Shown: positions 15,901-64,000, counted from the first letter of the stretch. The stretch is DNA of 64,000 nucleotides from Candidatus Oxydemutator sp. (GCA_965203445.1 OZ241883.1:1472001-1536000), one strand, 5' to 3'. Numbers and translations are program-made. The notes: generated from the letters alone by a model not told the origin.

Positions 15901-15958
15901 GCGCAAGCATAACACGCTACGGCGCAATCCGGCGGTCTATTGTAATATCCGCGTTGCG

Positions 15959-44937: not shown

Positions 44938-45034
44938 TGCGTGTATCTGAAGATCGTCTTGGCAAAGCGAGAGACAACGCTTGCCTTCCCTGACGACCGA
45001 CGGATTTTACATTTTCAACCTGGGAGGAAATGGA

Positions 45035-46840: not shown

Positions 46841-46868
46841 GCTTGTAACTTGTAGCGTTGTGGTTAAC

Positions 46869-46908
46869 CAGCCCCCGGAGCGCTTGCGGTTCGGGGGCTG
46901 AATTTTTT
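46869..46908 (+). terminator. Terminator-like hairpin between xoxF and xoxG
   Basis: cagcccccgga...ttcgggggctg followed by aatttttt. Confidence 0.65.
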
Positions 46909-46916
46909 GGAGACCG

Positions 46917-47396: not shown

Positions 47397-48223
47397 TGAG
47401 AACGTCCGTTGCGCCGGCGTGTCTGTTCGTCGGTTTTGCGATTCTGACGAGTAGTGCGCCGACGGCGCATGCCGCCGACGGCGGCACCGAAGTGGAGGAA
47501 CGCACGGTGCTGCGGGTTTGCGCCGACCCCAACGGCCTGCCTTATTCGAGCAGGGTCGAGGCCGGGTTCGAGAACAAAATAGCCGAATGGATCGCCGCGG
47601 ATCTCGGTATTCCGCTTTCCTATTACTGGTTTCCGCAAAGCATGGGCTTTGTGCGCACGACGCTTACCGCCAGGCGTTGTGATCTCGTCGTCGGCGTCTC
47701 GGCGGCCAATGAATTGTTGCTGAATACCAACCCCTACTACTCCTCGGCCTTTGCGCTGGTCTATCCGGCAAACGCGGGCCACAAGATGGTCTCGCTGGCG
47801 GACGCCAAATGGAAGAACCGGAAACTGCGCATCGGCTTGATCGCGGGCACGCCGCCGACCGGCCTGCTGCTCGAACACGGATTGATGGAACAGGTCGCCC
47901 CCTACCACCTGGTCGTGGACACGCGCGTGGATTCGCCGTCGGAGCAGATCGTCAAGGACCTGCTGGCCGGGAAATTGGACGCCGCCGTTTTGTGGGGGCC
48001 GCTCGCGGGCTATCTCGACAAACGCCACGGTTCGCGTCTGCGGATCGTGCCCCTGATCGCGGATCACTCGGAGAAACACCGCATGATCTACCGCATCACG
48101 ATGGGCGTCAGGGCCGGCGAGATACGCTGGAAGCGCAGGCTGAACCGGTTCATCCGCAAGAATCGGGAGAAGATGCACGCGCTCATGCGCGAATACGGCG
48201 TGCCCCTGGTCGAGGGGCCATGA
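47396..48223 (+). CDS. xoxJ: XoxJ/MxaJ-like periplasmic binding protein
   Basis: LRVCADPN.LPYS, GFENKIAE, WGPLAGY and MGVR motifs. Confidence 0.9.
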   Translation: MRTSVAPACLFVGFAILTSSAPTAHAADGGTEVEERTVLRVCADPNGLPYSSRVEAGFENKIAEWIAADLGIPLSYYWFPQSMGFVRTTLTARRCDLVVGVSAANELLLNTNPYYSSAFALVYPANAGHKMVSLADAKWKNRKLRIGLIAGTPPTGLLLEHGLMEQVAPYHLVVDTRVDSPSEQIVKDLLAGKLDAAVLWGPLAGYLDKRHGSRLRIVPLIADHSEKHRMIYRITMGVRAGEIRWKRRLNRFIRKNREKMHALMREYGVPLVEGP

Positions 48224-48792
48224 TCGCCGCGCCCGTCGCCGTCGTCGTCGCCGCGAGCATGGCCGCGCTTCAAGTCGCGGCGGCGTCCGGCGTCGTCGCG
48301 GAACCGGACGGCTACCGCATGGGCGATTACCGCTCGCCGGTGCCCGCGACCCTGCGCGGTGCCACCGTGGTCGACGCCGAGTCCTTGCGCGCGCTGATCG
48401 AGGGCGGCGCCGACGTCGCGCTGATCGACGTCCTGCCGCGCGACCGCAGGCCCGACGATTTCCCCGCCGACCGTCTGTGGCGCCCGCCGACGCGCCACCA
48501 TCTGCCGAACAGCGTGTGGCTGCCGAACGTCGGCTACGGCAGGCTGTCGGAGGCGTACGAGCGTTATTTCATGGACAACCTCGAGAAATTGACCAACCAT
48601 CGCGCCGGGAGAATCCTCGTCTTTTATTGCGACGCCGACTGCTGGATGTCGTGGAACGCGGCCAAGAGAGCGGTCGAGTTCGGTTTTCGCGAAGTCCACT
48701 GGTTTCCGGGCGGGGTGGATGAATGGGGGCGGATGGGTTATAAATTGATTGCCGGCAGCGCCGTCGAGATGCCCGCGGCCGTCGAGGAATAA
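48220..48792 (+). CDS. Exported rhodanese-domain protein, PQQ-catabolism-associated CXXCW family
   Basis: EPDGYR..DYRSPVPATL.GA, SVWLPN.GYG and FYCDADCWMSWNAAKRA. Confidence 0.88.
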   Translation: MIAAPVAVVVAASMAALQVAAASGVVAEPDGYRMGDYRSPVPATLRGATVVDAESLRALIEGGADVALIDVLPRDRRPDDFPADRLWRPPTRHHLPNSVWLPNVGYGRLSEAYERYFMDNLEKLTNHRAGRILVFYCDADCWMSWNAAKRAVEFGFREVHWFPGGVDEWGRMGYKLIAGSAVEMPAAVEE

Positions 48793-48804
48793 CGGGGAAT
48801 CGCC

Positions 48805-49527
48805 GTGACAAAACTCCCGCCGTTGCGCGCGCTCGCGCTCGCGCTCGCGCTCGTGCTCGCGCCGGGCGCGCCGGCGCAGGACGACGCGGGCGGCTACACC
48901 CGCGAGCAGCGCTTGTTGTTCGACACGCCGCACCTGGACAACGTGCGCGCGCGCGCCTCGCTGTATTATGATTTTCACCAGCACGGCAGCACCGCCGAGG
49001 TCATCGAGGATCGGGAAATCCTGCTGGAGATCACCGATGTGTCCGAGCGCGGCATGAATCTCGAAACGGCTTTTTTGGACGCCGCCGGAAACAGAACCTA
49101 CGCGGTCGAGAATTTTCGCGGCAACCCGATACTGATGTTTTTCCTCGAATGGGACGTGGGCAAGATGGATGACGCCAGCGTCGTCAGCCGCCACCACTTC
49201 CGCCACTTGCTGCGCAACGCGTTCCGCGACGCCGGAAGCGAGAAAGTCACGTTCGCCTACGGCGGGCGCGACGTTAACGGGCACAAGGTGTCGTTTGACC
49301 CGCTGGCCTCGAAGAAGGGCGACCCGAAATACAAAAATTATCCGGCCAAACGCTATGAGTTCATCATAGCCGACGACGTCCCCGGCGGCGTCTATAGCAT
49401 CGCCACGCGGATACCGGCGCCGACGGCGAAAGGCGAGGTGCTGGAATATACCGAGATGAAGTTCAACCGCATCGAACCGGCGGCGGCGTTCGCCGGCCCC
49501 CAATCGGGCGCGGCGCGCCCGCGGTGA
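48805..49527 (+). CDS. Exported hypothetical protein in the xox operon
   Basis: Signal peptide (APA-Q); LF.TPHL, GNP.LMFFLE.DV, VPGGVYSI; gene-like codon usage. Confidence 0.75.
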   Translation: MTKLPPLRALALALALVLAPGAPAQDDAGGYTREQRLLFDTPHLDNVRARASLYYDFHQHGSTAEVIEDREILLEITDVSERGMNLETAFLDAAGNRTYAVENFRGNPILMFFLEWDVGKMDDASVVSRHHFRHLLRNAFRDAGSEKVTFAYGGRDVNGHKVSFDPLASKKGDPKYKNYPAKRYEFIIADDVPGGVYSIATRIPAPTAKGEVLEYTEMKFNRIEPAAAFAGPQSGAARPR

Positions 49528-49531
49528 TCGC

Positions 49532-49894
49532 GTGACGGCGTCTTGCACAAACCGTCTCGCGCGTGCGCCGCGCACGGCCGTTCTGATAGTCGCTCTCGCG
49601 CTGGGCGCGCCCGCCGCGGCCAACGACTTTCCGACCAGGGCGCGCGCCGAGTACGTGTTCGCCTGCATGAGCGCCAACGGCCAGTCCATGGAGATCCTGG
49701 ACAAGTGTTCGTGCAGCATAGACGTGATCGCCGGGCAGATGAAATACGAAGACTACGTGGACGCGGAGACCGCGATCAGGATGCGCCAGTTGCGCGGCGA
49801 CCGCGCGGGCATATTTCGCAGCGCCGAGTGGGCCAGGCGGGCCGTGGACAGGTTCCAGGCGGCACAGGTCGAAGCGGAGGTGCGCTGCTTTTGA
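49532..49894 (+). CDS. Small exported Cys-rich hypothetical protein (quinoprotein-cluster associated)
   Basis: Signal peptide; NDFPT.ARAEYVFACM..NG, KCSCSID and C-terminal RCF. Confidence 0.78.
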   Translation: MTASCTNRLARAPRTAVLIVALALGAPAAANDFPTRARAEYVFACMSANGQSMEILDKCSCSIDVIAGQMKYEDYVDAETAIRMRQLRGDRAGIFRSAEWARRAVDRFQAAQVEAEVRCF

Positions 49895-50073
49895 GAGGGA
49901 CACGCACAAACGCCTGATTCGCATGGTATTTTGGCAGTATCCCATTGCCAAATCGGAAGGTATAGATTGGAAATTCCAATATATTTTTTGCTTGACACGT
50001 GATAATATGGCGGCGTGCTTGGGCACAAAAGCTAATTAGCAAAACCTTTATCGTATTCAGGAGGTATCTACTG

Positions 50074-50157
50074 ATGAAAGAATGGAAAACACCTTTGATC
50101 AGGGAAGTTTCAGTAGGCATGGAAATCAACTGCTATGCCTGCGCGGAAATTTCCTGA
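50074..50157 (+). CDS. pqqA: PQQ precursor peptide PqqA (27 aa)
   Basis: Manual translation MKEWKTPLIREVSVGMEINCYACAEIS with E-x-x-x-Y core; AGGAGGT RBS; directly upstream of pqqB. Confidence 0.95.
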   Translation: MKEWKTPLIREVSVGMEINCYACAEIS

Positions 50158-50242
50158 TATACATAGATAGAAAATCAATACTTGGGTTTTCCCCCTTTCG
50201 GCACGCTGAACTTTGGGATAGAAACGGTGACTTTCGGATCTG

Positions 50243-51172
50243 ATGCGTATCATCGTTCTAGGTTCCGCGGCCGGGGGGGGATTCCCGCAATGGAACTGCA
50301 ATTCTGAATACTGCCGCCTCGCGCGAAGCGGCAGCCCCCAAGCCCCCCAACGAACCCAATCCTCGCTCGCCGTCACCGCCGACGGGGAGCGCTACGTCCT
50401 GCTCAACTGCTCGCCCGACCTGCGCCAGCAGCTGACTCAGACCGAGGCGCTGCATCCGCGCGCCGGCTTGCGCGACAGCCCGGTCAAGGCCGTGGTCCTG
50501 ACCAACGGCGACGTCGACCACGTGGCCGGCCTGCTGACGATGCGCGAGAGCGAGCCTTTCAGTATCTACGCTTCCGACCGGGTGCGGCAGATCCTGAACA
50601 CCAACTCGATATTCAACGTGCTGAACCCGGAGTACGTGCGCCGCCACACGTTCGCGCTGTCGCGCCCGTTTCGCCCGGCCGATGCCGCCGGCCGCGACCT
50701 GGGGCTTACCGTCGAGGCTTTTGCGGTGCCGGGCAAGGTCGCGCTGTTTTTGGAGGACGCGAGCGGCGGCGACAACTTCGGCACGCGCGAGGGCGACACG
50801 GTCGGCCTGCACGTCCAGGATTCCGAGCAAGGCGCATCCTTTTACTATATTCCCGGCTGCGCGCGCCTGGACGACGCGCTGCGCCGGCGCCTTGACGGCG
50901 CCGGCCTGCTGTTTTTCGACGGCACGCTGTTTCGAGACGACGAGATGATCACGATGGGCGTCGGCAAAAAAACCGGGGCGCGCATGGGGCACATCAGCAT
51001 GGACGGCGACGCCGGTTCGCTGGCGGCGTTTCGCAACCTGCGCGTCGCGCGCAAAATCTACGTCCACGTCAACAACACCAACCCGGTGCTGCTCGAGAAC
51101 TCGCGCGAACGCAGGACGGTCGAGGACGCCGGCTGGAGCGTCGCCCGCGACGGGCAGGTGATAGAACCGTGA
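50243..51172 (+). CDS. pqqB: PQQ biosynthesis protein B
   Basis: LGSAAGGGFPQWNCN..YC, RTQSS, RMGH and HVNNTNP motifs. Confidence 0.97.
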   Translation: MRIIVLGSAAGGGFPQWNCNSEYCRLARSGSPQAPQRTQSSLAVTADGERYVLLNCSPDLRQQLTQTEALHPRAGLRDSPVKAVVLTNGDVDHVAGLLTMRESEPFSIYASDRVRQILNTNSIFNVLNPEYVRRHTFALSRPFRPADAAGRDLGLTVEAFAVPGKVALFLEDASGGDNFGTREGDTVGLHVQDSEQGASFYYIPGCARLDDALRRRLDGAGLLFFDGTLFRDDEMITMGVGKKTGARMGHISMDGDAGSLAAFRNLRVARKIYVHVNNTNPVLLENSRERRTVEDAGWSVARDGQVIEP

Positions 51173-51915
51173 GCGGGCTTCCCGGCGAAATGCTTGCGCG
51201 CGCCGAACTCGAGCGGCGCCTGCGCGCGATCGGCGAATCCTACTATCACGACAAACATCCGTTTCATCGTCTGCTGCACGCGGGCAAACTCGAGCGCGGG
51301 CAGGTGCAGGCGTGGGCCCTGAACCGCTACTGTTATCAGGCGGCGATCCCGATCAAGGACGCGCGCCTGATGGCGCGTCTGCCGCACCAGGATTTGCGCC
51401 GCGAGTGGCGCCGGCGCATCAGCGATCACGACGGCGACGAACCGGGCGCCGGCGGCATCGAGCGCTGGCTCAGACTGACCGACGGCTTGGGCCTTGCGCG
51501 CGATTACGTGACGTCGCGCGCCGGCGCGCTGCCGGCGACGAAGTTCGCGGTCGACGCCTACGTGCACTTCGTCTCGGAAATGCCGCTGATCGAGGCCGTG
51601 GCCTCGTCGCTGACCGAGATATTCTCGCCCGTGATCATCGCCGAAAGAATGTCCGGAATGCTCGCCAATTACGATTTCATCACCGAGGAGACCATGGCCT
51701 ATTTCAAGCCGCGCCTGACGCAGGCGCGCCGCGACGTTGATTTCGCGCTGGCCTACGTCCTCGACCACGCGCAAACGCCGGAGCGACAGCGCGGCGTGCT
51801 GCGCGCGCTGCGCTTCAAGTGCGACGTGTTGTGGAGCCAGCTGGACGCGCTGTATTTCGCGTACGTCGAGCCGCGCCTGGTGCCGCCGGATTGTTTTGTT
51901 CCCGATGGACGCTGA
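51169..51915 (+). CDS. pqqC: PQQ synthase
   Basis: YHDKHPFH, NRY.YQ..IP.KDA, RI.DHDG and FKCDVLW.QLD. Confidence 0.97.
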   Translation: MSGLPGEMLARAELERRLRAIGESYYHDKHPFHRLLHAGKLERGQVQAWALNRYCYQAAIPIKDARLMARLPHQDLRREWRRRISDHDGDEPGAGGIERWLRLTDGLGLARDYVTSRAGALPATKFAVDAYVHFVSEMPLIEAVASSLTEIFSPVIIAERMSGMLANYDFITEETMAYFKPRLTQARRDVDFALAYVLDHAQTPERQRGVLRALRFKCDVLWSQLDALYFAYVEPRLVPPDCFVPDGR

Positions 51916-51917
51916 AA

Positions 51918-52223
51918 ATGGACACTGAAAAGCCGGCCCGCAAACGCGCGCTCGTATCGCCCGAGTCTATGCCGTCGCTGCCGCCGCACGTCAGGCTGCA
52001 CCACGACAAGACGCGCGACCGCTGGGTGCTGCTGGCGCCGGAGCGCCTGCTGGAACCGGACGAGGCGGCGCTTGCGATCCTGCGCCTGTGCGACGGCGAG
52101 AAGACGCTGCGCACCATCGCGCGCGCCCTGGCCCAGTCCTATAATGCGTCCGAGGATCTGATATTGGACGACGTCAAGTCGCTGATCCAGGATCTCGCCG
52201 ACAAGGACTTCATACGGATATGA
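51918..52223 (+). CDS. pqqD: PqqD peptide chaperone
   Basis: WVLLAPER, IL.LCDG; between pqqC and pqqE. Confidence 0.93.
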   Translation: MDTEKPARKRALVSPESMPSLPPHVRLHHDKTRDRWVLLAPERLLEPDEAALAILRLCDGEKTLRTIARALAQSYNASEDLILDDVKSLIQDLADKDFIRI

Positions 52224-53347
52224 GCGCGCGCGACAAAAGCATAGGCCTGCCGGTCTCGATCCTGTTCGAGCTGACGCACCGCTGCCCGTTGCAATGCCCG
52301 TATTGCTCGAACCCGCTGCAACTGGAGCAGGCGGCCAACGAACTGACCACCGCGCAATGGTCGGAGGTGATGGAGCAGGCCGTGGCCATGGGCATTTTGC
52401 AGGTGCATTTCTCGGGCGGCGAGCCGGCGTTGCGGCGCGACCTCGAGGACCTGGTCGAGAAAGCCGAAAGCCTGGGCCTGTACAGCAACCTGATTACGTC
52501 CGGCGTCGGCATAGACGACAAGCGCGTGGAGCGCCTGGCCGCGCGCGGCCTCAAGCACGTGCAGATCAGCGTGCAGGACAGCGTCGAGGACAACGCCAAC
52601 CGTATCGGCGGCCACCGCGACGGCTTCGCGCGCAAGATGGCGGCCGCCAACGCGGTGCGCGCGCACGGCCTGCCGCTGACCATAAACGCGCCGATCCACA
52701 AGATGAACGTCGAGCATCTGCCGTCCATCATTGATCTCGCGGTGGCCATGGGGGCCTCGCGCATGGAGGTCGCGCACGTGCAGTACTACGGCTGGGCCTA
52801 CCACAACCGGGCGGCGTTGATGCCGAAACGCGAGCAGCTGGAATGGGCCACCGGCGTGGTCGAGGACGCGCGCCGGCGCCTGCAGGGCGTGATGGTCATT
52901 GATTACGTGGTGCCGGACTATTACGCGCGCCGGCCCAAGGCGTGCATGGGCGGCTGGGCGCGTCAGTTTCTGAACGTGACGCCGTCGGGCAAGGTGCTGC
53001 CGTGCCACGCCGCCGAGAGCATCACGTCGCTGCGCTTCGACAACGTCAAGGAGCGCAGCCTGAAGGACATCTGGCACCACTCGGAGGCGTTCGAGAAATA
53101 CCGCGGCAGCGACTGGATGCCGGCAAGATGCCGCTCGTGCGAGCGCCGCGAAATAGACTGGGGCGGTTGCCGCTGCCAGGCGTTTGCGATAACCGGCGAC
53201 GCCGCCAACATGGATCCGGCGTGCGAGTTTTCCGATCACCACGAGCATCTCGTCAACGTCGCGCTGCTCGAATCCGACCGCAAAGACGCGGATTTCGATT
53301 ACCGCACGCTGCGGGGTATTCCCGTCGTGCAGCAGGCGCGTGCCTGA
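52220..53347 (+). CDS. pqqE: PqqE radical SAM peptide cyclase
   Basis: ELTHRCPLQCPYCSNP, KACMGGW and SPASM C..C.....D.GGCRCQA. Confidence 0.97.
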   Translation: MSARDKSIGLPVSILFELTHRCPLQCPYCSNPLQLEQAANELTTAQWSEVMEQAVAMGILQVHFSGGEPALRRDLEDLVEKAESLGLYSNLITSGVGIDDKRVERLAARGLKHVQISVQDSVEDNANRIGGHRDGFARKMAAANAVRAHGLPLTINAPIHKMNVEHLPSIIDLAVAMGASRMEVAHVQYYGWAYHNRAALMPKREQLEWATGVVEDARRRLQGVMVIDYVVPDYYARRPKACMGGWARQFLNVTPSGKVLPCHAAESITSLRFDNVKERSLKDIWHHSEAFEKYRGSDWMPARCRSCERREIDWGGCRCQAFAITGDAANMDPACEFSDHHEHLVNVALLESDRKDADFDYRTLRGIPVVQQARA

Positions 53348-53349
53348 AC

Positions 53350-54396
53350 GTGCCTGATCTCTCCGCACCCGCCGCCTCGCGCTCCCGCAAAGGGGCCGCC
53401 GGCGATCCACCGACGCGCGCGCCCGCGGCCGATACGCGGCACCGACCTCGCCGTCGGCGCTTGCAGGCCGGCCCGGTCCACAATCTGTCGGTGGCGGAAT
53501 ACGGCCCTGCGCGCGGCGTTCCGGCGTTGTTCCTGCACGGCGGGCCGGGCAGCGGCTGCCGCGCCGCGCTGTGCCGTCTGTTTCCGGCGGATCGGTTTCG
53601 CATCGTCGCTCCCGATCAGCGCGGCGCCGGGGCCAGCCTGCCGCACGGCTGCCTTACGGAAAACACCACGCAAGATCTTGTCAATGACCTGGAGATGATT
53701 CGGCGCGAATTGGGAATCGGGCGCTGGCTCGTGGTCGGCGGTTCCTGGGGAGCGCTGCTTGCGGTCGCCTACGCCGAGGCGCATCCCGAGGCCGTGGCCG
53801 GCCTTGTCGTGCGCTCGCTGTTTCTCGGTACGGAAGAGGAGTTGCAGTGGGCTTTTATAACCGCGCCGCGCGCTTTCTATCCGGCGATGTACGAACGATT
53901 TATCGCGCTGCTGGCGCCGGGCGAACGTCGCGCGCCGTTGCCGGCGTGGTACGCGCGTCTGCTGCACGCCGACCCGGCCGTGGCGGTGCCCGCGAGTTTC
54001 GCGTGGCACGATTACGAGCGCGCGTTGTCGCAGTTGCGCCCGTGCGCGCCGGCTTTTGCGCAGGATTCCACCACTGCTCCCGCCACCCCCGCCGCCGAGA
54101 CGAGGGCGATGCCGTCCACGCCGCGCATGGAGGCGCATTATTTTGCCAACGGCTGTTTTCTCGAACGCGGCCAGTTGCTTGACGACGCGCACCGCCTTGC
54201 GGATATTCCCGGCGCCATCGTGCAGTCGCGCTACGATCTGTTGTGTCCGCCGCGCACCTCGCACGCGCTGGCGCGGCGCTGGCCGGCGGGCCGCATCGTC
54301 AACGTTGAGGCCGCCGGACACGACCAGTCCGAGGCCGGCGTCGCGCGCGCCGTGGCGCGCGCGGTCGCCGAGGTCGCCGCCGAGGCCGGCTTATGA
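53350..54396 (+). CDS. pip: Proline iminopeptidase (S33 alpha/beta hydrolase)
   Basis: HGGPGSG, DQRG.G.S.P, ENTT..LV.DLE, GGSWG, RYDLLC and AGH; GTG 2 nt after the pqqE stop. Confidence 0.85.
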   Translation: MPDLSAPAASRSRKGAAGDPPTRAPAADTRHRPRRRRLQAGPVHNLSVAEYGPARGVPALFLHGGPGSGCRAALCRLFPADRFRIVAPDQRGAGASLPHGCLTENTTQDLVNDLEMIRRELGIGRWLVVGGSWGALLAVAYAEAHPEAVAGLVVRSLFLGTEEELQWAFITAPRAFYPAMYERFIALLAPGERRAPLPAWYARLLHADPAVAVPASFAWHDYERALSQLRPCAPAFAQDSTTAPATPAAETRAMPSTPRMEAHYFANGCFLERGQLLDDAHRLADIPGAIVQSRYDLLCPPRTSHALARRWPAGRIVNVEAAGHDQSEAGVARAVARAVAEVAAEAGL

Positions 54397-55679
54397 CGTC
54401 GCCCGTCGCCCGCCCCGTCGTCTGCCCCGTCGTCTGCCGATGGGCCGCGCGCTCGGCCGTGAGATCGGCCATGCTTGGGGCCGTGCTTGCGGCCGTGCTT
54501 GCGTGCTCGCTCGCCGCGTTGCCGGGCGCGAACCTTGCGCGCGCGCAGGCGCACGTCGTGCACGAGGAGCAGACGTTCAGCGCGGACGGTTCTTCGTGGG
54601 TCTTGTCGGTGCCGGCCGGCTACCGCCTCGAATGGGTCGCCGAGATGGATCGTCCGCGCATGTTGACGCGCGCCGCGGACGGCGCGTTGCTGGCGGGTTC
54701 GGCGTCGCAATACGTCTATCGGCTGGAGCCGCCGTACGACGGGGCCCGGGTGCTGGCCGAGGTCAGCGGTTTTGCGCACGGGGTCGCGGTGCGCGGCGAC
54801 GATCTGTGGGTCGCCGCGAGCAACGGACTCTACCGCGCGCCGTACAACCCCGGCGCGCGCCCGGGCAAACTGTCCAGGAAGGATTTCCAAAAAGTCATGC
54901 CGCTGCCGACCGGCGGCCACCCAAGCCGCACCGTCGCCGTCGGCCCGGATGCGAGGCTCTACCTGAGCCTTGGCATCAGCGGCAATTGCAGCGACGAATA
55001 CTTAGGCCCGGGCTATGATTTCGACGACTACCGCGGCGGCGTGCTGGTGCTGATCGAGGACGCGGGTGCTACGCGCTGGCGCGTGTACGCGTCGGGCCTG
55101 CGCAACCCGGTGGGCTTCGACTGGCATCCGGACACGGGCGTGCTCTACGCCTCCAACCACGGCCCCGACCATCACGGCTACGAGTTGCCGCCGGAGTATT
55201 TCAGCCGCCTCGACGCCGGGTCGTTTCACGGCATGCCGTGGTTCCAGTTCGACGGGCGCGCGATAGAGGCGGACGACTGCATAGCCGGAAAACCGCCGCG
55301 CACCGACGCGGTGCCTCCGGTGGCCACGTTTCCCGCGCGCAACGGGCCGATGGGCGTCGCTTTCGTGCCGCGCGGCGGCGATGCGATGGATGCGGCGTGG
55401 GCCGGCGACGCCGTGGTCGCGCTGCATGGTTCGTGGGCGACCAGGCCGCACGGCGGCTGGATCGGCCCCAGGGCCAGCCGCAGGCCGCCGTGGCTCGCGC
55501 TGGTGCGCTTTGAAGACGGCCGCGCGGAGCGCGTCGAACCGCTGATCGAAGGTTTTCAGAATGCTTCCGGCGCCCGCCTGGCCAGGCCCGTCGGTATCGT
55601 TTTCGGTGCCGACGGCGCGCTCTATTTCAGCAGCGACGGCGGCGCCGTCGAGGGCCTGTTCCGGCTTGCGAAGAAGTAG
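54393..55679 (+). CDS. PQQ-dependent sugar/sorbosone dehydrogenase family beta-propeller
   Basis: GPD.RLY.SLG...NC, YASGLRNPVG..WHP, ALHGSW and RPVGI...DGALY.S.D; start codon uncertain. Confidence 0.82.
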   Translation: MTSPVARPVVCPVVCRWAARSAVRSAMLGAVLAAVLACSLAALPGANLARAQAHVVHEEQTFSADGSSWVLSVPAGYRLEWVAEMDRPRMLTRAADGALLAGSASQYVYRLEPPYDGARVLAEVSGFAHGVAVRGDDLWVAASNGLYRAPYNPGARPGKLSRKDFQKVMPLPTGGHPSRTVAVGPDARLYLSLGISGNCSDEYLGPGYDFDDYRGGVLVLIEDAGATRWRVYASGLRNPVGFDWHPDTGVLYASNHGPDHHGYELPPEYFSRLDAGSFHGMPWFQFDGRAIEADDCIAGKPPRTDAVPPVATFPARNGPMGVAFVPRGGDAMDAAWAGDAVVALHGSWATRPHGGWIGPRASRRPPWLALVRFEDGRAERVEPLIEGFQNASGARLARPVGIVFGADGALYFSSDGGAVEGLFRLAKK

Positions 55680-55685
55680 GCGTCA

Positions 55686-55794
55686 CCCTCTCCCATGGGG
55701 GAGAAGGTTTGTCAAGGCGTTGAAACGGGGCATGCGCCACCCGCTCCCTCTGGGAGAGGGTTGGGGTGAGGGCCGCACATCCCTCACCCCAGCC
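55686..55794. repeat. CCCTCTCCC...GGGAGAGGG-type REP-like palindromes
   Basis: ccctctcccatgggggagaagg at 55686-55707; cccgctccctctgggagagggttggggtgaggg...ccctcacccc at 55740-55790; between convergent genes. Confidence 0.7.
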
Positions 55795-55798
55795 TGGT

Positions 55799-56842: not shown

Positions 56843-56864
56843 GGTTTCCTCCTTTGTCAGAGAC

Positions 56865-56885
56865 TGGTATACATCAAGTATATCA
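56865..56885. promoter_or_regulatory. Palindromic operator upstream of the hydrolase (GntR-like)
   Basis: TGGTATAC-atcaa-GTATATCA near-perfect inverted repeat. Confidence 0.55.
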
Positions 56886-56932
56886 TTGCGCCCGAACCCT
56901 TAATGTAACCCCCGCTTCAACGCCATAACAAA

Positions 56933-56953
56933 CCCTCTCCCCCTAGGAGAGGG
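56933..56953. repeat. REP-like hairpin
   Basis: ccctctccccctaggagaggg, identical to 43880-43900. Confidence 0.8.
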
Positions 56954-56957
56954 TGAC

Positions 56958-57854: not shown

Positions 57855-57898
57855 GCCCGCCATTCTAAGGCATCGGGCGGGGCACCGGGCGCAATCGC

Positions 57899-57931
57899 AA
57901 AAAAGGCGGGTGGTTTGCACCACCCGCCTTT
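57899..57931 (-). terminator. Rho-independent terminator of the porin gene
   Basis: aaaggcgggtggt-ttgc-accacccgccttt with an A run on the left (U tract on the - strand). Confidence 0.8.
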
Positions 57932-57960
57932 CGATTTGCCAAATGTCGTGAAGGAGAAAA

Positions 57961-59331: not shown

Positions 59332-59491
59332 GAGTTTCTCCTCATAAGCTATCTGGTAAATCAAGTTCGGGTTCCCCAAACTATGGCCGCCAATTATATA
59401 TGCAACGATTCATATTGCAATTTTTTGGTGTTTTTTCGGCATCGCCACCGCCTGATATGTAAGATACTGATATTGCATGGGAAAACGCTTC

Positions 59492-60256
59492 TCAGCCGAG
59501 TATTTCCGGAAACTTGCCGACAATTTCCCGATGCAGACGCTCGATTTCCGTGGCCTCGCGCCCCCGTTTTGGAAGCGCCGCCGCCAGCGGCAGGTCGGCC
59601 ACCAGCGTCGTCGGACGCCCCGAGAGAATCAACAGACGGTCGCCCAGAAACAGCGCCTCGCGCAGATTGTGCGTTACGAACAACACCGCGCGCGGCGTTT
59701 CTTCAAGTTGCGACAACAGCAGTTTGCGCAGGCGCGTCGCGGTGCGTTCATCAATCGAGGCGAACGGTTCGTCGAGCAGCAACAGCGGCGCCGCCACGGC
59801 GAAGCCGCGCGCCAGCGCCGCACGCCGCGACATGCCGAGCGACAGCGTCTGCGGGTAGGCGTCGGCGGCGTCGCTCAGGTTCATTTTCTCGAGCAGCCAC
59901 GCGATGCGCTCGTCGGCGCGCACGCCCGCCGGCAACGCCAGGCGAACGTTTTCGCGCACCGTGCGCCACGGCAGCAGGCACGGTTCCTGAAACACGTACG
60001 ACAGCGGCAGTTCGTCGTCGCCTCGCCGCGGGCGCGCGACTTCGCCGTCGAAGTCGTCGTCGAGGCCGGCGATCAGGTTCAGCAACGTGGTCTTGCCGCA
60101 GCCGGACGGCCCGGTCAGCGTCACCAGCTCGCGTTCGCCGAGCGCAAACCGCACGTCGCGCAAAACCCGCGTCGCCTGGCCGTCGTGGCGCGCGAAACTT
60201 TTGTCGTGAACGGCGACGCGCAACGCGACCGCCGCCGGCAGCGGCGTCGCGCTCAC
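59492..60256 (-). CDS. NitT/TauT-type ABC ATP-binding protein
   Basis: GPSGCGKTT, VFQEP.LLPW, LSLGMSRR and LDEPF. Confidence 0.9.
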   Translation of the reverse strand: MSATPLPAAVALRVAVHDKSFARHDGQATRVLRDVRFALGERELVTLTGPSGCGKTTLLNLIAGLDDDFDGEVARPRRGDDELPLSYVFQEPCLLPWRTVRENVRLALPAGVRADERIAWLLEKMNLSDAADAYPQTLSLGMSRRAALARGFAVAAPLLLLDEPFASIDERTATRLRKLLLSQLEETPRAVLFVTHNLREALFLGDRLLILSGRPTTLVADLPLAAALPKRGREATEIERLHREIVGKFPEILG

Positions 60257-61011
60257 GGTTTGCGCCAGCGGTTGACGTAGGCCTCGAACGGCTGCAACAG
60301 CGTCAGCTCGACGATCTGCATGATGATGATAAAGGTCAGCCCCCAGGCCATGATGGCCGCGACGTCGAACAGCTGGAAATACAGGTGCAGTTGAAAACCG
60401 ACGCCGTTGCCGCGCCCGAGCAGTTCGACCACGAGCACGATTTTCCAGATCAGCGCTATGCCCGAGCGCGTCGCGGCCGCGATGTACGGCGCCAGTTCGG
60501 GCACGATGACGTGGCGCAGCCTCTTCCACCAGCCGAAGCGGAACACCGTGGCCATCTGTTGCAGGCCGCGATCGGTCGCGCGCGCTCCTTCGCGTATCGT
60601 GACGACGACGTTCGGTATCTTGTTGACGGCGACTGCGGCGATGGCCGCGATTTCGGTCAGCCCCATCCAGATATAGGCGAGGATGATCACGACCAGCGCC
60701 GGCAGATTCAGAAAGAACAACAGCCATGGATCGAAGATCGCGTCGACCTTGCGAAAGCCGCCCATCAGAAAACCGATGGTGATGCCGGCGACCATCGAGA
60801 TCGTGAAGCTGGCGACGACGCGCCACAACGTGACGCCGGTATGAAAGAACAACTCGCCGGTGGCGGCCTCGGCGGCGATGACGCCGGCGACGCTGGCCGG
60901 CGACGGCAGCGTATCCTCGCCGGCGAGCCGCGAACCGAACCACCACAGCAGGATCAGCACGCCGATGGAAGCGACGGCCGTGAGCGGGAATTTTTTCTTG
61001 GTCGCCGCCAT
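60253..61011 (-). CDS. NitT/TauT-type ABC permease
   Basis: LNLPALV, NKIPNV...REGAR and WKIVLVVELLG...GVGF. Confidence 0.9.
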   Translation of the reverse strand: MAATKKKFPLTAVASIGVLILLWWFGSRLAGEDTLPSPASVAGVIAAEAATGELFFHTGVTLWRVVASFTISMVAGITIGFLMGGFRKVDAIFDPWLLFFLNLPALVVIILAYIWMGLTEIAAIAAVAVNKIPNVVVTIREGARATDRGLQQMATVFRFGWWKRLRHVIVPELAPYIAAATRSGIALIWKIVLVVELLGRGNGVGFQLHLYFQLFDVAAIMAWGLTFIIIMQIVELTLLQPFEAYVNRWRKP

Positions 61012-61021
61012 TCGCGCGCGT

Positions 61022-61981
61022 TCAGAAGCGCACTTCGTTCCAGAAGGTTCCGGGTGCCAGGCGTGCGCCGCCGGTCGCCTTGACGCCGCCGAATTGCGTC
61101 AGCAGTTCCATCAGGCGCGCCGCATCAGTGCGTTCGCGCGCGCCCCAGCGCTTCGGTATCCCTTCGCGGTAGCGCTCGCGCAGCGTCGTGAAAGTGGCGT
61201 CGTCGTCGGCGCGCATCAACGGCCGCAGGCGCCGCCACTCGGCGTCGTCGGCGAGCAGCCTGGCGCGCGCGGCGCGCGCGGCGGCGTTGAAGCGCCGGAC
61301 GATGCCGGCGTTTGCGCGCGCCCAATCCTCGCCGAAGACGTAGCCGACCATCGGCGTCGCGTCGGTGCCGAGTCCGGTGATGACGTCGCCGATCTCGACA
61401 AGCCGCCGGTAGCCGACGGCTTCGAGGCGCGCGCAGTAATGCCAGAAATTCAGCACCGCGTCGAGTTTCCCGCGTTCGATCTGTCCGTTCAGCAGCGGCG
61501 GCGCCGCGTATTGCGCGTCGAACGCGGACAGCGGATCGAAGGCGTGCCGTTTTTGCGCCCACGCGCGCAGCAGCAGCCAGCTTTTGTCGAAGGCGCCGCC
61601 GGCGACGCCGACGCGCAAATCGCGCAAATCGCGCAGGTCGCGCGCGTCGCTTGCGGCGGGCACCATGAGCGCGCCTAGCGCCGACGAGTAGGGGATGAAA
61701 CTGAAGCGTTTGCCGCGCGCGCGTTCGCGTGACACCCACACCCAGTCGGTTACAATCACGTCGACCTCGCCGCTCTGAAACACGACGTGCGCGGCCTGCT
61801 TGCTGGCGAACTCCCGCACCTTCAGGGCGAAGCCCTGCTCGCGGTCGAGGCCATGGTGGCGGACGGTGTCGAGTTCCCAGTTGACGGTGCCGAATTTGAG
61901 CGTGCCGATGCGCACGACGTCGTCGGCCGAGGTCGTCGCGGCCAGCAACAGCAAGGGTAGAAACAGGCTTTTGTAAGACAT
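61022..61981 (-). CDS. ABC substrate-binding protein, PqqT-like (putative PQQ binding)
   Basis: GTLKFGTVNWELD...HGLD, DVIVTDW.WVSR.R, DKSWLLL and APPLL; located in the xox/pqq cluster. Confidence 0.75.
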   Translation of the reverse strand: MSYKSLFLPLLLLAATTSADDVVRIGTLKFGTVNWELDTVRHHGLDREQGFALKVREFASKQAAHVVFQSGEVDVIVTDWVWVSRERARGKRFSFIPYSSALGALMVPAASDARDLRDLRDLRVGVAGGAFDKSWLLLRAWAQKRHAFDPLSAFDAQYAAPPLLNGQIERGKLDAVLNFWHYCARLEAVGYRRLVEIGDVITGLGTDATPMVGYVFGEDWARANAGIVRRFNAAARAARARLLADDAEWRRLRPLMRADDDATFTTLRERYREGIPKRWGARERTDAARLMELLTQFGGVKATGGARLAPGTFWNEVRF

Positions 61982-62067
61982 GTCGGAATTATACGGGGAT
62001 TATATACACGGCTGCACAAAGACTTGACAATAGTTGGGTGAGGACCGTTCCGGCCTCATACACCAGC

Positions 62068-62094
62068 AAGGGAACGCCCCCACGGCGTTCCCGA
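62068..62094. repeat. REP-like palindrome, inverted copy of 43761-43787
   Basis: aagggaacgcccccacggcgttcccga is the exact reverse complement (27 nt). Confidence 0.85.
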
Positions 62095-62122
62095 AAAAAC
62101 CCCTGCTATCATAACCGCTGTC

Positions 62123-62761
62123 ATGACTAGGCCGTATCCACTATCGTCCCGCGTCGGCGCCGCCATCGGCGTGCTGCTTGCCGCGCTCGTCGCGCACGTC
62201 GCGGCGCAACCGCGGCACGCCGCGCCCGAGGGTTGGCCGTGCGTGCAGAGTTACGTGCCGAGTGTTTCGGCCGGCAGATTCTGGCAGGGGGAACTGCCGC
62301 GGGAGGAACGCTGGCGCGACGACGCGCGCGTAACGCGCCTCGCCGACGAGTTGCTGAGTCGCGCGTCGGGGCTGGAGGAGAGCCTCGACAAAGTCCGACA
62401 ATTCTTCGCGGCACCGGAAAACGCGACGCGCGCCACGGCCGAGCTGCTGGTCGGTGCGCTGACCGCGGCCGTGAACCGCGAGCGCGGCAGGGTGCTAGAC
62501 GGCATCGGGCGTTTCGGCGCGCGTCAGCGGATGCTGGTCAAGCGCATAGAAAGTCAGGCCAAAAGCATCGAGAAACTGCAAGACGCCGGCGGCGACGCGG
62601 TCGAATTGGAGGACCTGCAGACGCGGCAGCGGTGGGACATCCGCGTGTTCGAGGAGCGCGAGCGCATGGCCGACCATCTGTGCGAGCAGCCGGTGTTATT
62701 AGAGCAGCGGTTTTTTGCGATCGGGCGCGTCGTCGCGTCGCTGTTCGCGCCCGGCGACTGA
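62123..62761 (+). CDS. Exported helical protein of xox/lanthanide-associated clusters
   Basis: Signal peptide; WPCVQ..VP, N.ER..V..GI.RF and W..RVFEER......CE.PV..EQR motifs. Confidence 0.72.
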   Translation: MTRPYPLSSRVGAAIGVLLAALVAHVAAQPRHAAPEGWPCVQSYVPSVSAGRFWQGELPREERWRDDARVTRLADELLSRASGLEESLDKVRQFFAAPENATRATAELLVGALTAAVNRERGRVLDGIGRFGARQRMLVKRIESQAKSIEKLQDAGGDAVELEDLQTRQRWDIRVFEERERMADHLCEQPVLLEQRFFAIGRVVASLFAPGD

Positions 62762-62773
62762 GCGCTCTCCCCG

Positions 62774-63250
62774 TTAATTTCTTGCGGCGCGCGCCTCGAC
62801 CTTGCCGGCCGGGCAACGCACGTTCTCGTAGTTGATCAATACGCTGTTGAAAGACGGCGTGGGCGTGCGCACGCGGTGGTGGCGCAGCCACGCGTACTGG
62901 ATGTCGTAGGCCTGCAACTCGCGCGCCTTCCACGTCAGGCAGTCGTTGACCATCTTCAGCGCCTGGAACCGATCCTGGGCATAGTGGACGAGTTCGTGCA
63001 GCAGCACGCTGCGCGCGTGCAGATCGTTGACGAAGTCCTGGTTGTCGGACATATAGACGATTTTGTCGACGTTGGAAAACCAGCCGTAGACGTCGCATTC
63101 CCGATTGCCACAGGCCTTTTGCGCCAGCTCGCGCTGCGGCAGGACGCGGATTTCGGGCGCCGGCAGCTCGATGCCGACGGTGCCGGTCATGGACTGGATG
63201 AACAGCATCAGCGCGCCGACGATCTGGTTTTGCGCCGCGACTAGTTCCAC
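62774..63250 (-). CDS. Hypothetical protein with HExxH motif (DUF6647-like)
   Basis: SVLLHELVHYAQ, downstream E.QAY..Q, four Cys. Confidence 0.7.
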   Translation of the reverse strand: MELVAAQNQIVGALMLFIQSMTGTVGIELPAPEIRVLPQRELAQKACGNRECDVYGWFSNVDKIVYMSDNQDFVNDLHARSVLLHELVHYAQDRFQALKMVNDCLTWKARELQAYDIQYAWLRHHRVRTPTPSFNSVLINYENVRCPAGKVEARAARN

Positions 63251-63313
63251 GGTGGCCTCGCGGTTTTCAGGAGCCCCTCGCGTCCGGGTGCACGCTCCGG
63301 TGGATGCCGAAGT

Positions 63314-64000
63314 TCAGGTGGCGGTCACCGGCCACGTCGCCGTGTAGGTCTTATTGCGCGAGTCGACCGCCTTTGCGTGCAGCACGTCGCCGCCCGGCCT
63401 GGGCTTGTAGAAGAAGTCGAAGCTCGGGTTGTGGCTGAACGTGATGTCGCCCTTGGCCGCAAACACCGTCTCGCCGTCGTCGTTCATGACCTCGACGGTC
63501 TCGACGTAGTGCGGCGGGATGAACAGCGTCGTTACCTGATCCATCTGCATGCCCGAGTTGTTGGGATGCAGCAGCGACAGCTGGAAGCCGCGCGCGTCTT
63601 CGCGCGCCGCGGTGTGCGCCAATTCCATCTTGCCCATCGTCAGCTGCGCCATCGGGTCGTCGTTCGGCGGCGGCGCCGAGCAGCCGCCGGACGCCTTGAC
63701 AAACGCCGAGTTCATATAGAGTTCGCCGCGGTTGGTCTCGGCGATCACGCGCACGTGGCTGTATTCGTTGACGCGAATGCGGGTGCCGATCTCGGCCGTG
63801 CCGTTTTTCGGCGACAAGGTGAACACGCCGGCCACCGGCGACGGGTTCTTATCCACGACCAGGTAGTGCTTGCGGATGTAGTGATCGGCTTGTTGCGGCG
63901 TCGCCGGGATGATCCGCACCGAGACGTCGGCGCCGTTGGCCGGGCGCACCGGGGCTTCCAGGCGTATGCGTCCGGCGCCGTCCGCCACCGGCCGATCCTG
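63314..64000 (-). CDS. Quinoprotein dehydrogenase-associated SoxYZ-like carrier (5' end outside window)
   Basis: SoxY-like VDKNPSP, TRIRVNEYS.VR..AE and VKASGGCSAP fused to SoxZ-like HPN.SG.QMDQ. Confidence 0.88.
   Translation of the reverse strand, partial: QDRPVADGAGRIRLEAPVRPANGADVSVRIIPATPQQADHYIRKHYLVVDKNPSPVAGVFTLSPKNGTAEIGTRIRVNEYSHVRVIAETNRGELYMNSAFVKASGGCSAPPPNDDPMAQLTMGKMELAHTAAREDARGFQLSLLHPNNSGMQMDQVTTLFIPPHYVETVEVMNDDGETVFAAKGDITFSHNPSFDFFYKPRPGGDVLHAKAVDSRNKTYTATWPVTAT

Follow-up and report, generated by a model that had tools for sequence, protein, structure and literature searches.

The closest described counterpart of the locus analysed here is the 'quinoprotein relay' set of NCBIfam, whose names cover TIGR03865, TIGR04557, TIGR04558 and TIGR04559. 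It comprises the TIGR04557 carrier, the zinc metallohydrolases TIGR04558 and TIGR04559, and TIGR03865, with PP_2677, PP_2678 and PP_2666 as its P. putida representatives. A 2026 review proposes disulfide formation, cofactor stabilisation or PQQ protection as the role of this set and cites RB-TnSeq data in which the ped-type trio of P. putida, grown without rare earths, showed minimal phenotypes. SoxYZ-S4, a xoxF-linked clade of fused SoxYZ proteins from symbiotic sulfur oxidisers, appears in the accessible text of a 2024 paper (PMC11237559). In M. extorquens AM1, the wild type grows with La at 0.16 h-1, and strains deleted for orf6 or orf7 grow at 0.03 h-1, or at 0.08 h-1 with a 9 h lag; according to the authors, both genes are needed only with La (PMC7391723). 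Because two of the proteins already have curated models and the 2026 review puts forward the same ideas, the core set must be regarded as known, though uncharacterised. The initial annotation of this DNA had proposed an undescribed system, a claim preceded by the NCBIfam models, the review and, in its accessible text, PMC11237559.

We refer to the whole 64,000-nucleotide stretch analysed as the window. All five open reading frames for Cys-motif proteins listed in the initial annotation were confirmed, as was the absence of soxABX from the window (Table 1). Their supposed arrangement around xoxF was not borne out: the genes form two modules separated by about 12 kb of DNA that carries unrelated genes, and the quinoprotein gene nearest the carrier encodes a second, PedH-like dehydrogenase just beyond the window end.

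Table 1. Features of the xox-pqq module and of the importer-carrier module, in window coordinates
Feature	Position	Strand	Basis or remark
xoxF, lanthanide-type PQQ methanol dehydrogenase	44981..46840	+	TIGR03075, 770.7 bits, above cut-off
xoxG, c-type cytochrome of methanol system	46917..47396	+	TIGR03874, 178.5 bits vs cut-off 161.75
xoxJ-like periplasmic binding-protein homologue	47396..48223, start approximate	+	TIGR03871, 277.4 bits vs cut-off 212
Rhodanese-like exported protein, YCDADCW	48220..48792	+	TIGR03865 (CXXCW), 201.6 bits vs cut-off 128
p240, exported, without conserved Cys	48805..49527	+	no Pfam/NCBIfam family; M. extorquens orf7 position
p120, 120 aa, exported, all-helical, four invariant Cys	49532..49894	+	no known family; M. 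extorquens orf6 position
pqqA, pqqB, pqqC, pqqD, pqqE (PQQ biosynthesis)	50074..53347; pqqA 50074-50157	+	ORFs, translations
ABC importer	59492..61981	-	PqqT-like substrate-binding protein 61022-61981; permease 60253-61011; ATPase about 59492-60280
p212, exported, two invariant Cys (WPC, LCEQP)	62123..62761	+	no known family
HExxH-158, small zincin-like metallohydrolase (predicted), four conserved Cys	62774..63250	-	alignments A1, A6; predicted model
SoxYZ-like fused carrier	63314..64000, running on to window coordinate 64126	-	TIGR04557, 226.5 bits vs cut-off 140

The first module joins xox and pqq genes. The xoxF reading frame opens at 44981, with a probable start near 45035; the closest solved structures to its product are Ln-dependent XoxF enzymes (6OC5, 939 bits; 6DAM, 918 bits), and the translation contains the vicinal Cys-Cys ('MCCD'). 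MxaJ, a relative of XoxJ, is described in the accessible text of PMC12276312 as a chaperone that inserts PQQ. The pqq genes start immediately 3' of p120 and were named from translations and gene order, without a family model; tblastn recovered pqqB, pqqC and pqqE of the window in the same order in relatives. Translated pqqA carries E-x-x-x-Y, which we take to be the mark of PqqA.

Three exported proteins are encoded between xoxJ and pqqA. The rhodanese motif C137-x3-C141-W142 is invariant in 12/12 orthologues (alignment A8), and its gene comes after xoxJ in all 14 relatives' loci. p240, which matched no family in Pfam or NCBIfam and whose atlas leads were confined to lipoprotein-sorting-like and DUF3108-like clusters, is likewise kept after the rhodanese (14/14 loci) and, in distantly related genomes, has the carrier gene or pqqE as a neighbour. 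p120 has a signal peptide, a conserved region starting at NDFPT, and four cysteines (C45, C59, C61 and C119) that are invariant in 13/13 and 49/49 sequences (alignments A3 and A7); its homologues fill at least 4371 clusters, and a structure search with its predicted model (pLDDT 85.8) found no structural neighbours. Like orf6 and orf7 of M. extorquens AM1 (META1p1746/1747), p120 and p240 homologues lie between xox genes and pqqE, an equivalence by gene order only; unlike the AM1 pair, which follows pqqE, the pair here stands directly after the rhodanese and before pqqA. In the Methylobacterium genus group, p120 and p240 adjoin pqqE in 5/5 loci, i.e. at the orf6/orf7 positions, with xoxJ upstream of them in three of the five and xoxF and xoxG also present in L131 and L132; L131 additionally has a PqqT-type transporter just upstream of xoxF.

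The second module opens with the importer, whose permease and ATPase were identified by family matches. Its binding protein aligned over its full length with the PqqT structures 9B1U/9B1V/9OOZ (E 1.2e-64, 221.6 bits) and, of the PQQ-contacting residues of PqqT taken from PMC11331073, retains most, namely L37, T41, G112, D141 and the key Lys K142, with conservative changes at A42V, N143S, Y188F and I222V. Judged by its sequence, it is a homologue of the PQQ-binding protein PqqT; in contrast to PqqT of M. extorquens AM1 (PDB 9B1U), it is encoded only a few kb from the carrier, HExxH-158 and p212. Of 17 family loci fetched, 15 bear the module, and in 11 of these all three importer genes are no more than a few kb from p212, HExxH-158 and the carrier; the three also occur with the carrier in L049. 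They recur in eight extra-family loci, with the carrier adjoining in L092, L095, L101, L102, L108, L117 and L127; in L071, also outside the family, no carrier was in view. The PQQ-handling link formed by the PqqT-type transporter, the pqq genes and XoxJ had no place in the initial annotation.

p212, which has a signal peptide, keeps WPC40 and C187-EQ invariant in 15/15 sequences (alignment A2) and has homologues in 857 cluster representatives at E<=1e-3 and 126 at <=1e-30. The HExxH-158 gene lies 63 nt 3' of the carrier gene on the common strand. Among 64 sequences of its family, H85, E86, H89, C52, C104 and C146 never vary, and at least 90% of the sequences keep C47; E111, downstream of HExxH, is also invariant, and homologues occupy 2749 clusters. 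DUF6647 was found in 51 of the 64 members, and HExxH-158 itself falls below the DUF6647 cut-off (17.7 vs 24.1 bits). Its predicted model (pLDDT 90.4) has zincin catalytic domains as neighbours at Z 5.5-7.8, nearly all hits in this range being zincins, and Foldseek matches were weak; the model points to a zincin-like fold. Like minimal zincins (selecase/abylysin minigluzincins, YbeY, SprT/Spartan and the M1 catalytic domain), the protein combines HExxH with a downstream Glu; unlike these and DUF6647, it has four conserved Cys. A literature search found no account of a genomic association between HExxH-158, the carrier and PQQ genes. Because it lacks a signal peptide here, HExxH-158 may stay in the cytoplasm, out of the carrier's reach; some orthologues have an N-terminal anchor.

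The carrier is a 270-aa protein with a twin-arginine signal and SoxY and SoxZ domains in Pfam. It shares with canonical SoxYZ both folds and a conserved Gly-Gly-Cys, and differs in having its halves fused and its Cys internal (SGGCSAP) instead of on a C-terminal GGCGG arm. The GGC cysteine noticed earlier is indeed invariant (Cys149, 17/17 sequences, alignment A5); it does not sit on a free C-terminal arm but in the internal linker joining the SoxY-like and SoxZ-like halves. Against the true-SoxY model the carrier scores 58.9 bits, below the cut-off of 125; true soxY and soxZ genes are present as a separate pair some 56 kb away, and soxB was not found in the complete genome. As in the NCBIfam set, the carrier and rhodanese pass their cut-offs and adjoin Ln-type PQQ dehydrogenases. 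Unlike ped-type carriers, to which it is 25% identical (36-60 bits), the carrier groups in a separate, xoxF-type clade. That clade fits SoxYZ-S4 by description only, the accessible text of PMC11237559 likewise placing a fused carrier and xoxF in one cluster of a symbiont-type gammaproteobacterium.

In 35/35 other sampled genomes, a SoxH-like metallo-beta-lactamase-fold hydrolase (MBL) accompanies the carrier, which it adjoins in 32. An MBL-fold partner had been expected just beyond position 64000; none was found there, elsewhere in the genome, or in any of the 19 genomes of the source organism's family (0/19), though the carrier is kept. In this the locus differs from the NCBIfam set and from SoxYZ-S4, whose fusion genes lie near soxH in the accessible text of PMC11237559. 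The accessory set here is an unusual form without the usual hydrolase partner. Another difference from the NCBIfam set is that four more families without a name, together with a transporter of the PqqT type, are attached to it.

Within the family, 17 loci were fetched around carrier matches, and 15 of them hold p212, HExxH-158 and the carrier together; xoxFGJ-rhodanese-p240-p120 is intact in 14/14 loci, and the two modules abut in a relative's locus (L011). p120, p212, HExxH-158 and p240 are widespread: Alpha-, Beta- and Gammaproteobacteria have them as neighbours of the carrier, xoxFGJ and pqqABCDE. Among 65 extra-family HExxH loci, at least one partner was found within 10 kb in 32: the carrier in 21, p120 in 21, MBL in 16, xoxF in 14, p240 in 12, p212 in 12, a PqqT-like binding protein in 8 and pqqC in 7; for loci scoring at least 100 bits, a partner was present in 23/28. 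One Tistlia locus (L083) holds rhodanese-xoxJGF, MBL, carrier, p120, p240, HExxH and pqqBCE, and Anderseniella-type loci unite binding protein, permease, ATPase, carrier, p120, p240 and HExxH. Across 400 other genomes, for which the Fisher P value overstates the association because related genomes are not independent, p120 and carrier were both present in 20, p120 alone in 3, carrier alone in 15 and neither in 362; the two genes were neighbours in 11. One family member (G012) lacks xoxF, pqqC, p120, HExxH, carrier and rhodanese altogether, a co-loss for which one deletion, or one gap in the assembly, of some 40 kb could account, since in a congener only about 30 kb separate the modules. The HExxH profile, applied to the phylum sample, matched only three other genomes, none beside a carrier and all in unrelated contexts, and set membership is therefore patchy. 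The fused modules of L011, the joint recurrence of members in distant lineages, the carrier in 20/23 p120-bearing genomes and the joint absence of the whole set, xoxF and pqqC from G012 agree with the quinoprotein-linked, co-occurring set that the initial annotation had envisaged.

Several functions could be assigned to this set. That it forms, isomerises or re-oxidises the unusual vicinal Cys-Cys disulfide beside PQQ in XoxF-type dehydrogenases, with the rhodanese C-x3-C and the carrier Cys as thiol-disulfide exchangers, was proposed in the 2026 review, which also points to a gene for a thioredoxin-like protein in the operon of M. extorquens. Both XoxF and the second dehydrogenase (by translation) have an adjacent Cys pair, and the rhodanese has its invariant C-x3-C. 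We consider it unlikely, given that Ca-dependent enzymes share the disulfide yet organisms such as P. aeruginosa are without these genes (2026 review), that family searches saw no thioredoxin-fold member in the locus, and that the PqqT transporter/pqq linkage, the metallohydrolases and the SoxYZ fold would be left unexplained. Sulfur chemistry, in which the carrier Cys would bind sulfane, sulfite or thiosulfate sulfur, the rhodanese transfer it and a hydrolase release it, as in Sox, sparing PQQ or XoxF from poisoning by sulfur nucleophiles in the periplasm, draws on the derivation of all three named families from sulfur oxidation, on a TIGR04557-scoring carrier adjoining soxC (L037), on the true soxYZ in the genome and on the inhibition of Hyphomicrobium methanol growth by thiosulfate (cited in the 2026 review). 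It nevertheless seems improbable: the carrier fails the true-SoxY model and has an internal Cys, soxB was not found, bacteria without thiosulfate oxidation have the set too, the authors of PMC11237559 argue for a carbon-metabolism role, and the orf6/orf7 phenotype arose in defined medium with La, with sulfur stress unreported (PMC7391723).

Aldehyde capture was the first option of the initial annotation: formaldehyde would be trapped as a hemithioacetal on the carrier thiol, the dehydrogenase would convert this to a thioester and a hydrolase would free formate, in a protein-bound counterpart of formaldehyde oxidation with glutathione. It is chemically coherent with a glyoxalase-II-like MBL thioesterase beside the carrier in so many sampled genomes, and an aldehyde dehydrogenase lies 8 kb downstream here; the missing MBL weakens it, as a whole family keeps the carrier without that enzyme, the PqqT/pqq linkage is left unexplained, and ped-type and xoxF-type aldehydes are very different, all of which makes it very unlikely. 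The modules might also not form one system but serve separate functions and travel together only because both depend on PQQ. One would be a xox/pqq operon to which the genes of two extra exported proteins belong, the other a transporter for PQQ salvage whose neighbours are unrelated to it. The unrelated genes between them, the absence of HExxH and p212 from many carrier-bearing genomes and a ped-type set without p120 speak for this; we think it unlikely in view of the fusion in L011, the contiguity of carrier, p120, p240 and HExxH in many distant loci and the p120-carrier adjacency in the sampled genomes.

The thiol relay through all Cys proteins that was suggested earlier is not supported, as the even numbers of invariant Cys in p120 (four), p212 (two) and HExxH-158 (four) suggest structural disulfides; reactive Cys seem to be confined to the carrier, which has a single one, and to the C-x3-C of the rhodanese. 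Overall, the earlier interpretation is partly supported. The explanation we favour, to which we give an even chance, is that the locus carries a xoxF-linked form of the known, uncharacterised quinoprotein relay set, acting in the periplasm to make the Ln/PQQ dehydrogenase active or keep it so, and centred on PQQ handling. The carrier's reactive Cys would hold a covalent adduct, either PQQ bound through its electrophilic C5 or a sulfur nucleophile that has been removed from the cofactor, and the rhodanese C-x3-C would load or resolve it. Release would fall to a metallohydrolase, the SoxH-like MBL in most lineages and here, where the MBL is missing, the HExxH zincin, whose gene comes right after that of the carrier; HExxH and MBL coexist in 16 of the 65 extra-family loci, and HExxH is therefore not simply an MBL substitute. 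Free PQQ would be recaptured by PqqT and inserted into XoxF by XoxJ, with p120, p240 and p212 as disulfide-stabilised periplasmic partners, not redox relays. That orf6/orf7 are needed only with La, while the Ca enzyme also requires PQQ, argues for a XoxF/Ln-specific role over general PQQ handling. The accessory set of these dehydrogenases is larger than databases show, with p120, p212, HExxH-158, p240 and the PqqT-type importer added, and its strongest new link is to PQQ handling, through the PqqT-type transporter, the pqq genes and XoxJ.

The source genome is complete, a single contig of 2.38 Mb, and the genes under study fall into two modules. The genes of the first are contiguous and without large gaps, and about 6 kb of other genes part them from the second, which comprises an ABC transporter, the exported protein p212 (which, like p120 and p240 of the first module, has no named family), the small zincin-like protein HExxH-158 and the fused SoxY-SoxZ-like carrier. 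The second PQQ dehydrogenase, encoded past the window end, has PedH as its closest solved relative (6ZCV/6ZCW, E 1e-86).

Features of the two modules and of neighboring genes (window coordinates unless a locus or genome is named; profile scores with cut-offs)
Feature	Position	Strand	Assignment
YpsA/SLOG-family protein, circularly permuted	15497-16453		
xoxF	first gene of module 1, 44981-53347	+	TIGR03075, 770.7 bits; best solved relatives the Ln-dependent XoxF 6OC5 and 6DAM
xoxG	within 44981-53347	+	TIGR03874
xoxJ-like	within 44981-53347	+	TIGR03871
Rhodanese-like protein	within 44981-53347, after xoxJ-like	+	TIGR03865, 201.6 bits (cut-off 128.05)
p240, p120	within 44981-53347, between rhodanese and pqqA	+	
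pqqA, pqqBCDE	end of 44981-53347	+	named from translations and gene order
Prolyl aminopeptidase	53347-55679		TIGR01249, 260.7 bits (cut-off 259.75)
Glucose/sorbosone-dehydrogenase-like, MetX-like hydrolase, SHOCT protein, porin-like protein	between the modules		
ABC ATPase, permease, substrate-binding protein	59492-61981	-	
p212	62123-62761	+	
HExxH-158	62774-63250	-	
SoxYZ-like carrier	63314-64126, beyond the window end	-	TIGR04557, 226.5 bits (cut-off 140)
Lipoprotein-like 150-aa gene, dihaem-type cytochrome c, second PQQ dehydrogenase	L004:1365-4436, window ~64365-67436		
Stand-alone soxY and soxZ	L005:7152-7980, G000:C1:1592152-1592980, ~56 kb past the window	-	TIGR04488, 129.9 bits (cut-off 125); TIGR04490, 125.9 bits (cut-off 76)

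Among the bordering genes, the lipoprotein-like gene adjoins the carrier at 9 of the 15 loci of the organism's own family, Oxydemutatoraceae, and at none of the other loci examined; only one of two same-genus loci (L010, not L013) also has the cytochrome c and PedH-like dehydrogenase. The prolyl aminopeptidase, which may be a PQQ-related peptidase, directly follows pqqE here and in most family loci, usually with the glucose/sorbosone-dehydrogenase-like gene next. Elsewhere in the window, the YpsA/SLOG-family gene lies in a stretch of lower G+C (12000-16000; 0.58-0.62 against about 0.67 elsewhere), and the remainder of positions 1-44000 is housekeeping (leuCDB, asd, lysC, tig-clpPX-lon, ppiD, YhdP).

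The carrier aligns to TIGR04557 over model positions 1-225 of 226, joins Pfam SoxY and SoxZ in one chain with a conserved Cys149, and is encoded about 1.4 kb from the PedH-like dehydrogenase, which together place it in the fused-carrier family; likewise, the rhodanese belongs to TIGR03865 by its score and its Cys...Cys-Trp motif. In contrast, the carrier falls short of canonical SoxY (TIGR04488, 58.9 bits against 125) and SoxZ (TIGR04490, 44.7 bits against 76). Canonical SoxYZ bears a C-terminal GGCGG swinging arm and works with SoxB, whereas here the Cys is internal and a search of the complete genome for SoxB (TIGR04486) at E<=0.001 found nothing. The initial annotation had described a GGC swinging-arm Cys: the residue is indeed conserved (C149, 17/17 sequences), but its SGGCSAP segment lies where the SoxY-like half meets the SoxZ-like half rather than on a free C-terminal arm. 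Separately, the genome has a true soxY/soxZ carrier pair between argH and lysA, an orphan lacking the hydrolase that normally goes with it. In another genome (L037, G314:C16:18300-38299), a fused carrier at 9624-10475 (220 bits on TIGR04557) neighbors soxC (TIGR04555, 598 bits) and an ArsR regulator rather than a quinoprotein, so that TIGR04557 also captures carriers in a sulfur-oxidation context.

The suggestion that the system was undescribed does not survive comparison with existing resources, as NCBIfam already names the rhodanese, the carrier and two "quinoprotein relay system" MBL hydrolase models. A 2026 ped-cluster review describes the P. putida trio PP_2666, PP_2677 and PP_2678, proposes disulfide formation, cofactor stabilisation or PQQ protection from sulfur nucleophiles as their role, and notes minimal RB-TnSeq phenotypes without rare earths (PMC12997753). 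Similarly, PMC11237559 distinguishes two fused SoxYZ clades, one linked to ADH and soxH and the other to xoxF, and argues for a role in carbon metabolism. Our literature search, which had supplements outside its scope, found no paper linking DUF6647/HExxH, p212 or orf6/orf7 to the carrier.

Synteny within the family ties these genes together. The order xoxF-G-J-rhodanese-p240-p120 is unbroken in 14/14 family loci, and p212, HExxH and the carrier occur together in 15 of the 17 loci fetched around carrier-model matches; the close relatives concerned are labelled Candidatus Oxydemutatoraceae or Ca. Porisulfidus. The remaining two (L018, L022) match the window's carrier weakly (26-27% identity), are interrupted by an in-frame stop within the stretch matched by the model and have no partner gene in view. 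Eleven of the 15 module-bearing loci also have the complete ABC transporter no more than a few kb away; one genus differs in that its binding-protein gene adjoins xoxF, as seen in four loci. While xoxF lies about 16.5 kb from the carrier in the window, both modules form one contiguous array (xoxFGJ, rhodanese, p240, p120, carrier, HExxH) in a relative (L011). One further family member (G012, 95% complete), the only one without carrier and rhodanese, shows none of xoxF, pqqC, p120, HExxH, carrier and rhodanese, all present in two control relatives; since the modules lie about 30 kb apart in its congener G005, a single deletion or an assembly gap could explain this absence. Another relative (L121, 9629-12253; L021) carries two tandem carrier copies, with several fragmentary HExxH-profile matches between carrier and p212 that are possibly duplicated or decayed copies.

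Outside the family, the carrier is flanked by p120 and p240 in four loci (L045, L046, L047, L050) and by p120 alone in another (L049). Scanning named genomes with the HExxH alignment recovered 80 loci, 65 from outside the family, and at least one partner lay within 10 kb in 32/65: carrier in 21, p120 in 21, MBL in 16, xoxF in 14, p240 in 12, p212 in 12, a PqqT-like binding protein in 8 and pqqC in 7. Loci scoring at least 100 bits had a partner in 23 of 28 cases, and the 33 loci with no partner in this range were mostly weaker matches or short contigs. For phylogenetic profiling, 400 other genomes were sampled across the phylum, and 35 of these hold an uninterrupted carrier above the cut-off (44 copies). 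Here p120 tracks the carrier, 20 of the 23 p120 genomes being carrier genomes (both, 20; p120 only, 3; carrier only, 15; neither, 362); as related genomes are not independent, a P value for this association is no more than indicative. In 11 of the 20 genomes with both, p120 lies at most 2.5 kb from the carrier. Of the 15 genomes with a carrier but no p120, 14 encode an MBL above the TIGR04558 cut-off, which places them in the ped type represented by the P. putida trio. The HExxH profile gave three matches in this sample, all in carrier genomes; we discounted them as co-occurrence evidence and took them as distant superfamily members, given their unrelated loci (fabA/fabB, chemotaxis, others).

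All five Cys-motif proteins singled out in the initial annotation proved conserved in alignments of orthologues. In the rhodanese, C137-x3-C141-W142 is invariant (12/12), with a spacing of three residues rather than two; p120 retains C45, C59, C61 and C119 in 49/49 sequences, and p212 its WPC40 and C187-EQ in 15/15. Across 64 sequences of HExxH-158, H85, E86, H89, E111, C52, C104 and C146 are invariant and C47 is at least 90% conserved. Four of the five proteins carry signal peptides, the carrier's being of the twin-arginine type; HExxH-158 has none here, and some orthologues have an N-terminal anchor. The even number of Cys in each of p120, p212 and HExxH-158 fits structural disulfides better than a thiol/sulfur relay running through all of these proteins, and the locus cautions that a Cys-bearing exported protein need not be a redox relay.

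The predicted structure of HExxH-158 (pLDDT 90.4) has nearly only zincin catalytic domains as neighbors, at no more than Z 5.5-7.8 and Foldseek E>=0.06; DUF6647 matches 51 of 64 HExxH members and falls below its cut-off for the window's copy, and a search against PDB sequences returned only spurious immunoglobulin Fc rows (E>=0.003). The all-helical p120 model (pLDDT 85.8) had no Foldseek match in the PDB (best E 1.5), generic helical matches in a wider structural search (Z<=5.1) and nothing below E 0.8 for its sequence profile against the PDB, while Atlas look-ups of p212 and p240 returned unnamed clusters and weak leads only. The HExxH (2749 clusters), p120 (at least 4371 clusters) and p212 (857 representatives) families are large and unnamed.

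The initial annotation had further anticipated an MBL partner beyond position 64000. No MBL gene is present among the genes past the window end, and neither TIGR04558 nor TIGR04559 matched at E<=0.001 in the complete genome, which therefore lacks a recognizable MBL component of the whole relay system; TIGR04558 likewise matched in 0/19 family genomes at E<=1e-5. Conversely, a SoxH-like MBL was matched at E<=1e-30 in 35/35 other carrier genomes, within 2.5 kb of the carrier in 32/35 genomes and 37/44 copies. Within the extent of the fetched loci, those of the Anderseniella type likewise have no MBL in view. A FastTree phylogeny of carriers from a relaxed extraction parted the ped-type carriers (19 rows) from all xoxF-type copies; the window's carrier shares 37% identity with the xoxF type (127-220 bits) and 25% with the ped type (36-60 bits). 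The family's own carriers formed one clade in this tree (0.985) and in an IQ-TREE phylogeny of 38 rows, none of them ped-type (99/98). Because they nest within the xoxF-type group, the economical reading of these sequence-based trees is that the MBL was probably lost in the family, a reading that depends on rooting with the ped-type clade. We rejected the idea that HExxH simply stands in for the MBL, since both genes are present at 16 of the 65 loci from outside the family.

The locus can be linked to published genetics in M. extorquens AM1, where the gene order is xoxF1, xoxG, xoxJ, three genes, orf6, orf7, pqqE, pqqCD, pqqB, and loss of orf6 or orf7 lowered the growth rate on methanol with La from 0.16 h-1 to 0.03 h-1, or to 0.08 h-1 after a lag (PMC7391723). 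Five loci from that genus group, which includes M. oryzihabitans, the closest named relative (WP_127729673.1), have p120 and p240 homologues at the orf6/orf7 positions. Three of these (L131, L132, L134) read xoxJ, folK/folB/folP (annotated in L131 only), p120, p240, pqqE, with xoxF and xoxG also in view in L131 and L132, and in the other two (L133, L047) p240/p120 adjoin pqqE. We therefore treat p120 and p240 as positional equivalents of orf6 and orf7, drawn from gene order and not from AM1 sequence. That orf6 and orf7 were required only with La, as the same authors state, argues for an XoxF- or Ln-specific role rather than general PQQ supply.

The transporter extends this connection to PQQ. 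Its binding protein aligns over its full length with the solved structure of M. extorquens PqqT (E 1.2e-64, residues 21-311 against 3-294), and PqqT binds PQQ with a Kd of ~50-60 nM according to PMC11331073 and bioRxiv 2024.06.04.597491. Residues named in the former were mapped with an offset of 27, after which each fell on the right letter: five of nine are identical (L37, T41, G112, D141, K142) and four are conservative changes (A42V, N143S, Y188F, I222V). By full-length match and PQQ-holding residues, this is a predicted PqqT-type homologue, and the LutAEF lanthanide importer was set aside as an identity for the ABC transporter on this match. In L131, from the genus group that includes M. 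oryzihabitans (g120), xoxF is closely preceded by the same transporter.

Taken together, the evidence supports one accessory set serving the Ln/PQQ dehydrogenase, and the pqq genes, PqqT and XoxJ, whose relative MxaJ is described in PMC12276312 as a PQQ-insertion chaperone, point to PQQ handling as what unites it. In the stepwise mechanism proposed for this set, an adduct would form on the carrier's Cys, the rhodanese would load or resolve it and a metallohydrolase would release it; HExxH-158 might hypothetically be exported together with the twin-arginine carrier. A more specific and, in our estimate, improbable proposal would make the xoxF-type set a dedicated periplasmic PQQ-trafficking and repair system, in which Cys149 would covalently tether PQQ at the C5 carbonyl, loading and release would fall to the C-x3-C of the rhodanese together with a metallohydrolase (the MBL, or the HExxH zincin in the MBL-less lineage), p240 and p120 (orf7 and orf6) would pass PQQ with lanthanide to XoxF via XoxJ, and PqqT would recover escapees.

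For years the "quinoprotein relay" genes have carried a name but no explanation, and the present survey makes it easier to test how lanthanide/PQQ dehydrogenases get and keep their cofactors in the periplasm. It lengthens the parts list, with four unnamed widespread families and a PqqT-type transporter accompanying the carrier; places p120 and p240 at the positions of genes with a lanthanum-specific phenotype; and presents a natural variant, a whole bacterial family without the MBL hydrolase, that shows which parts are dispensable. If true, the proposed trafficking system would be the first case of a quinone cofactor carried bound to a protein, and would supply the assembly machinery so far missing for rare-earth enzymes.
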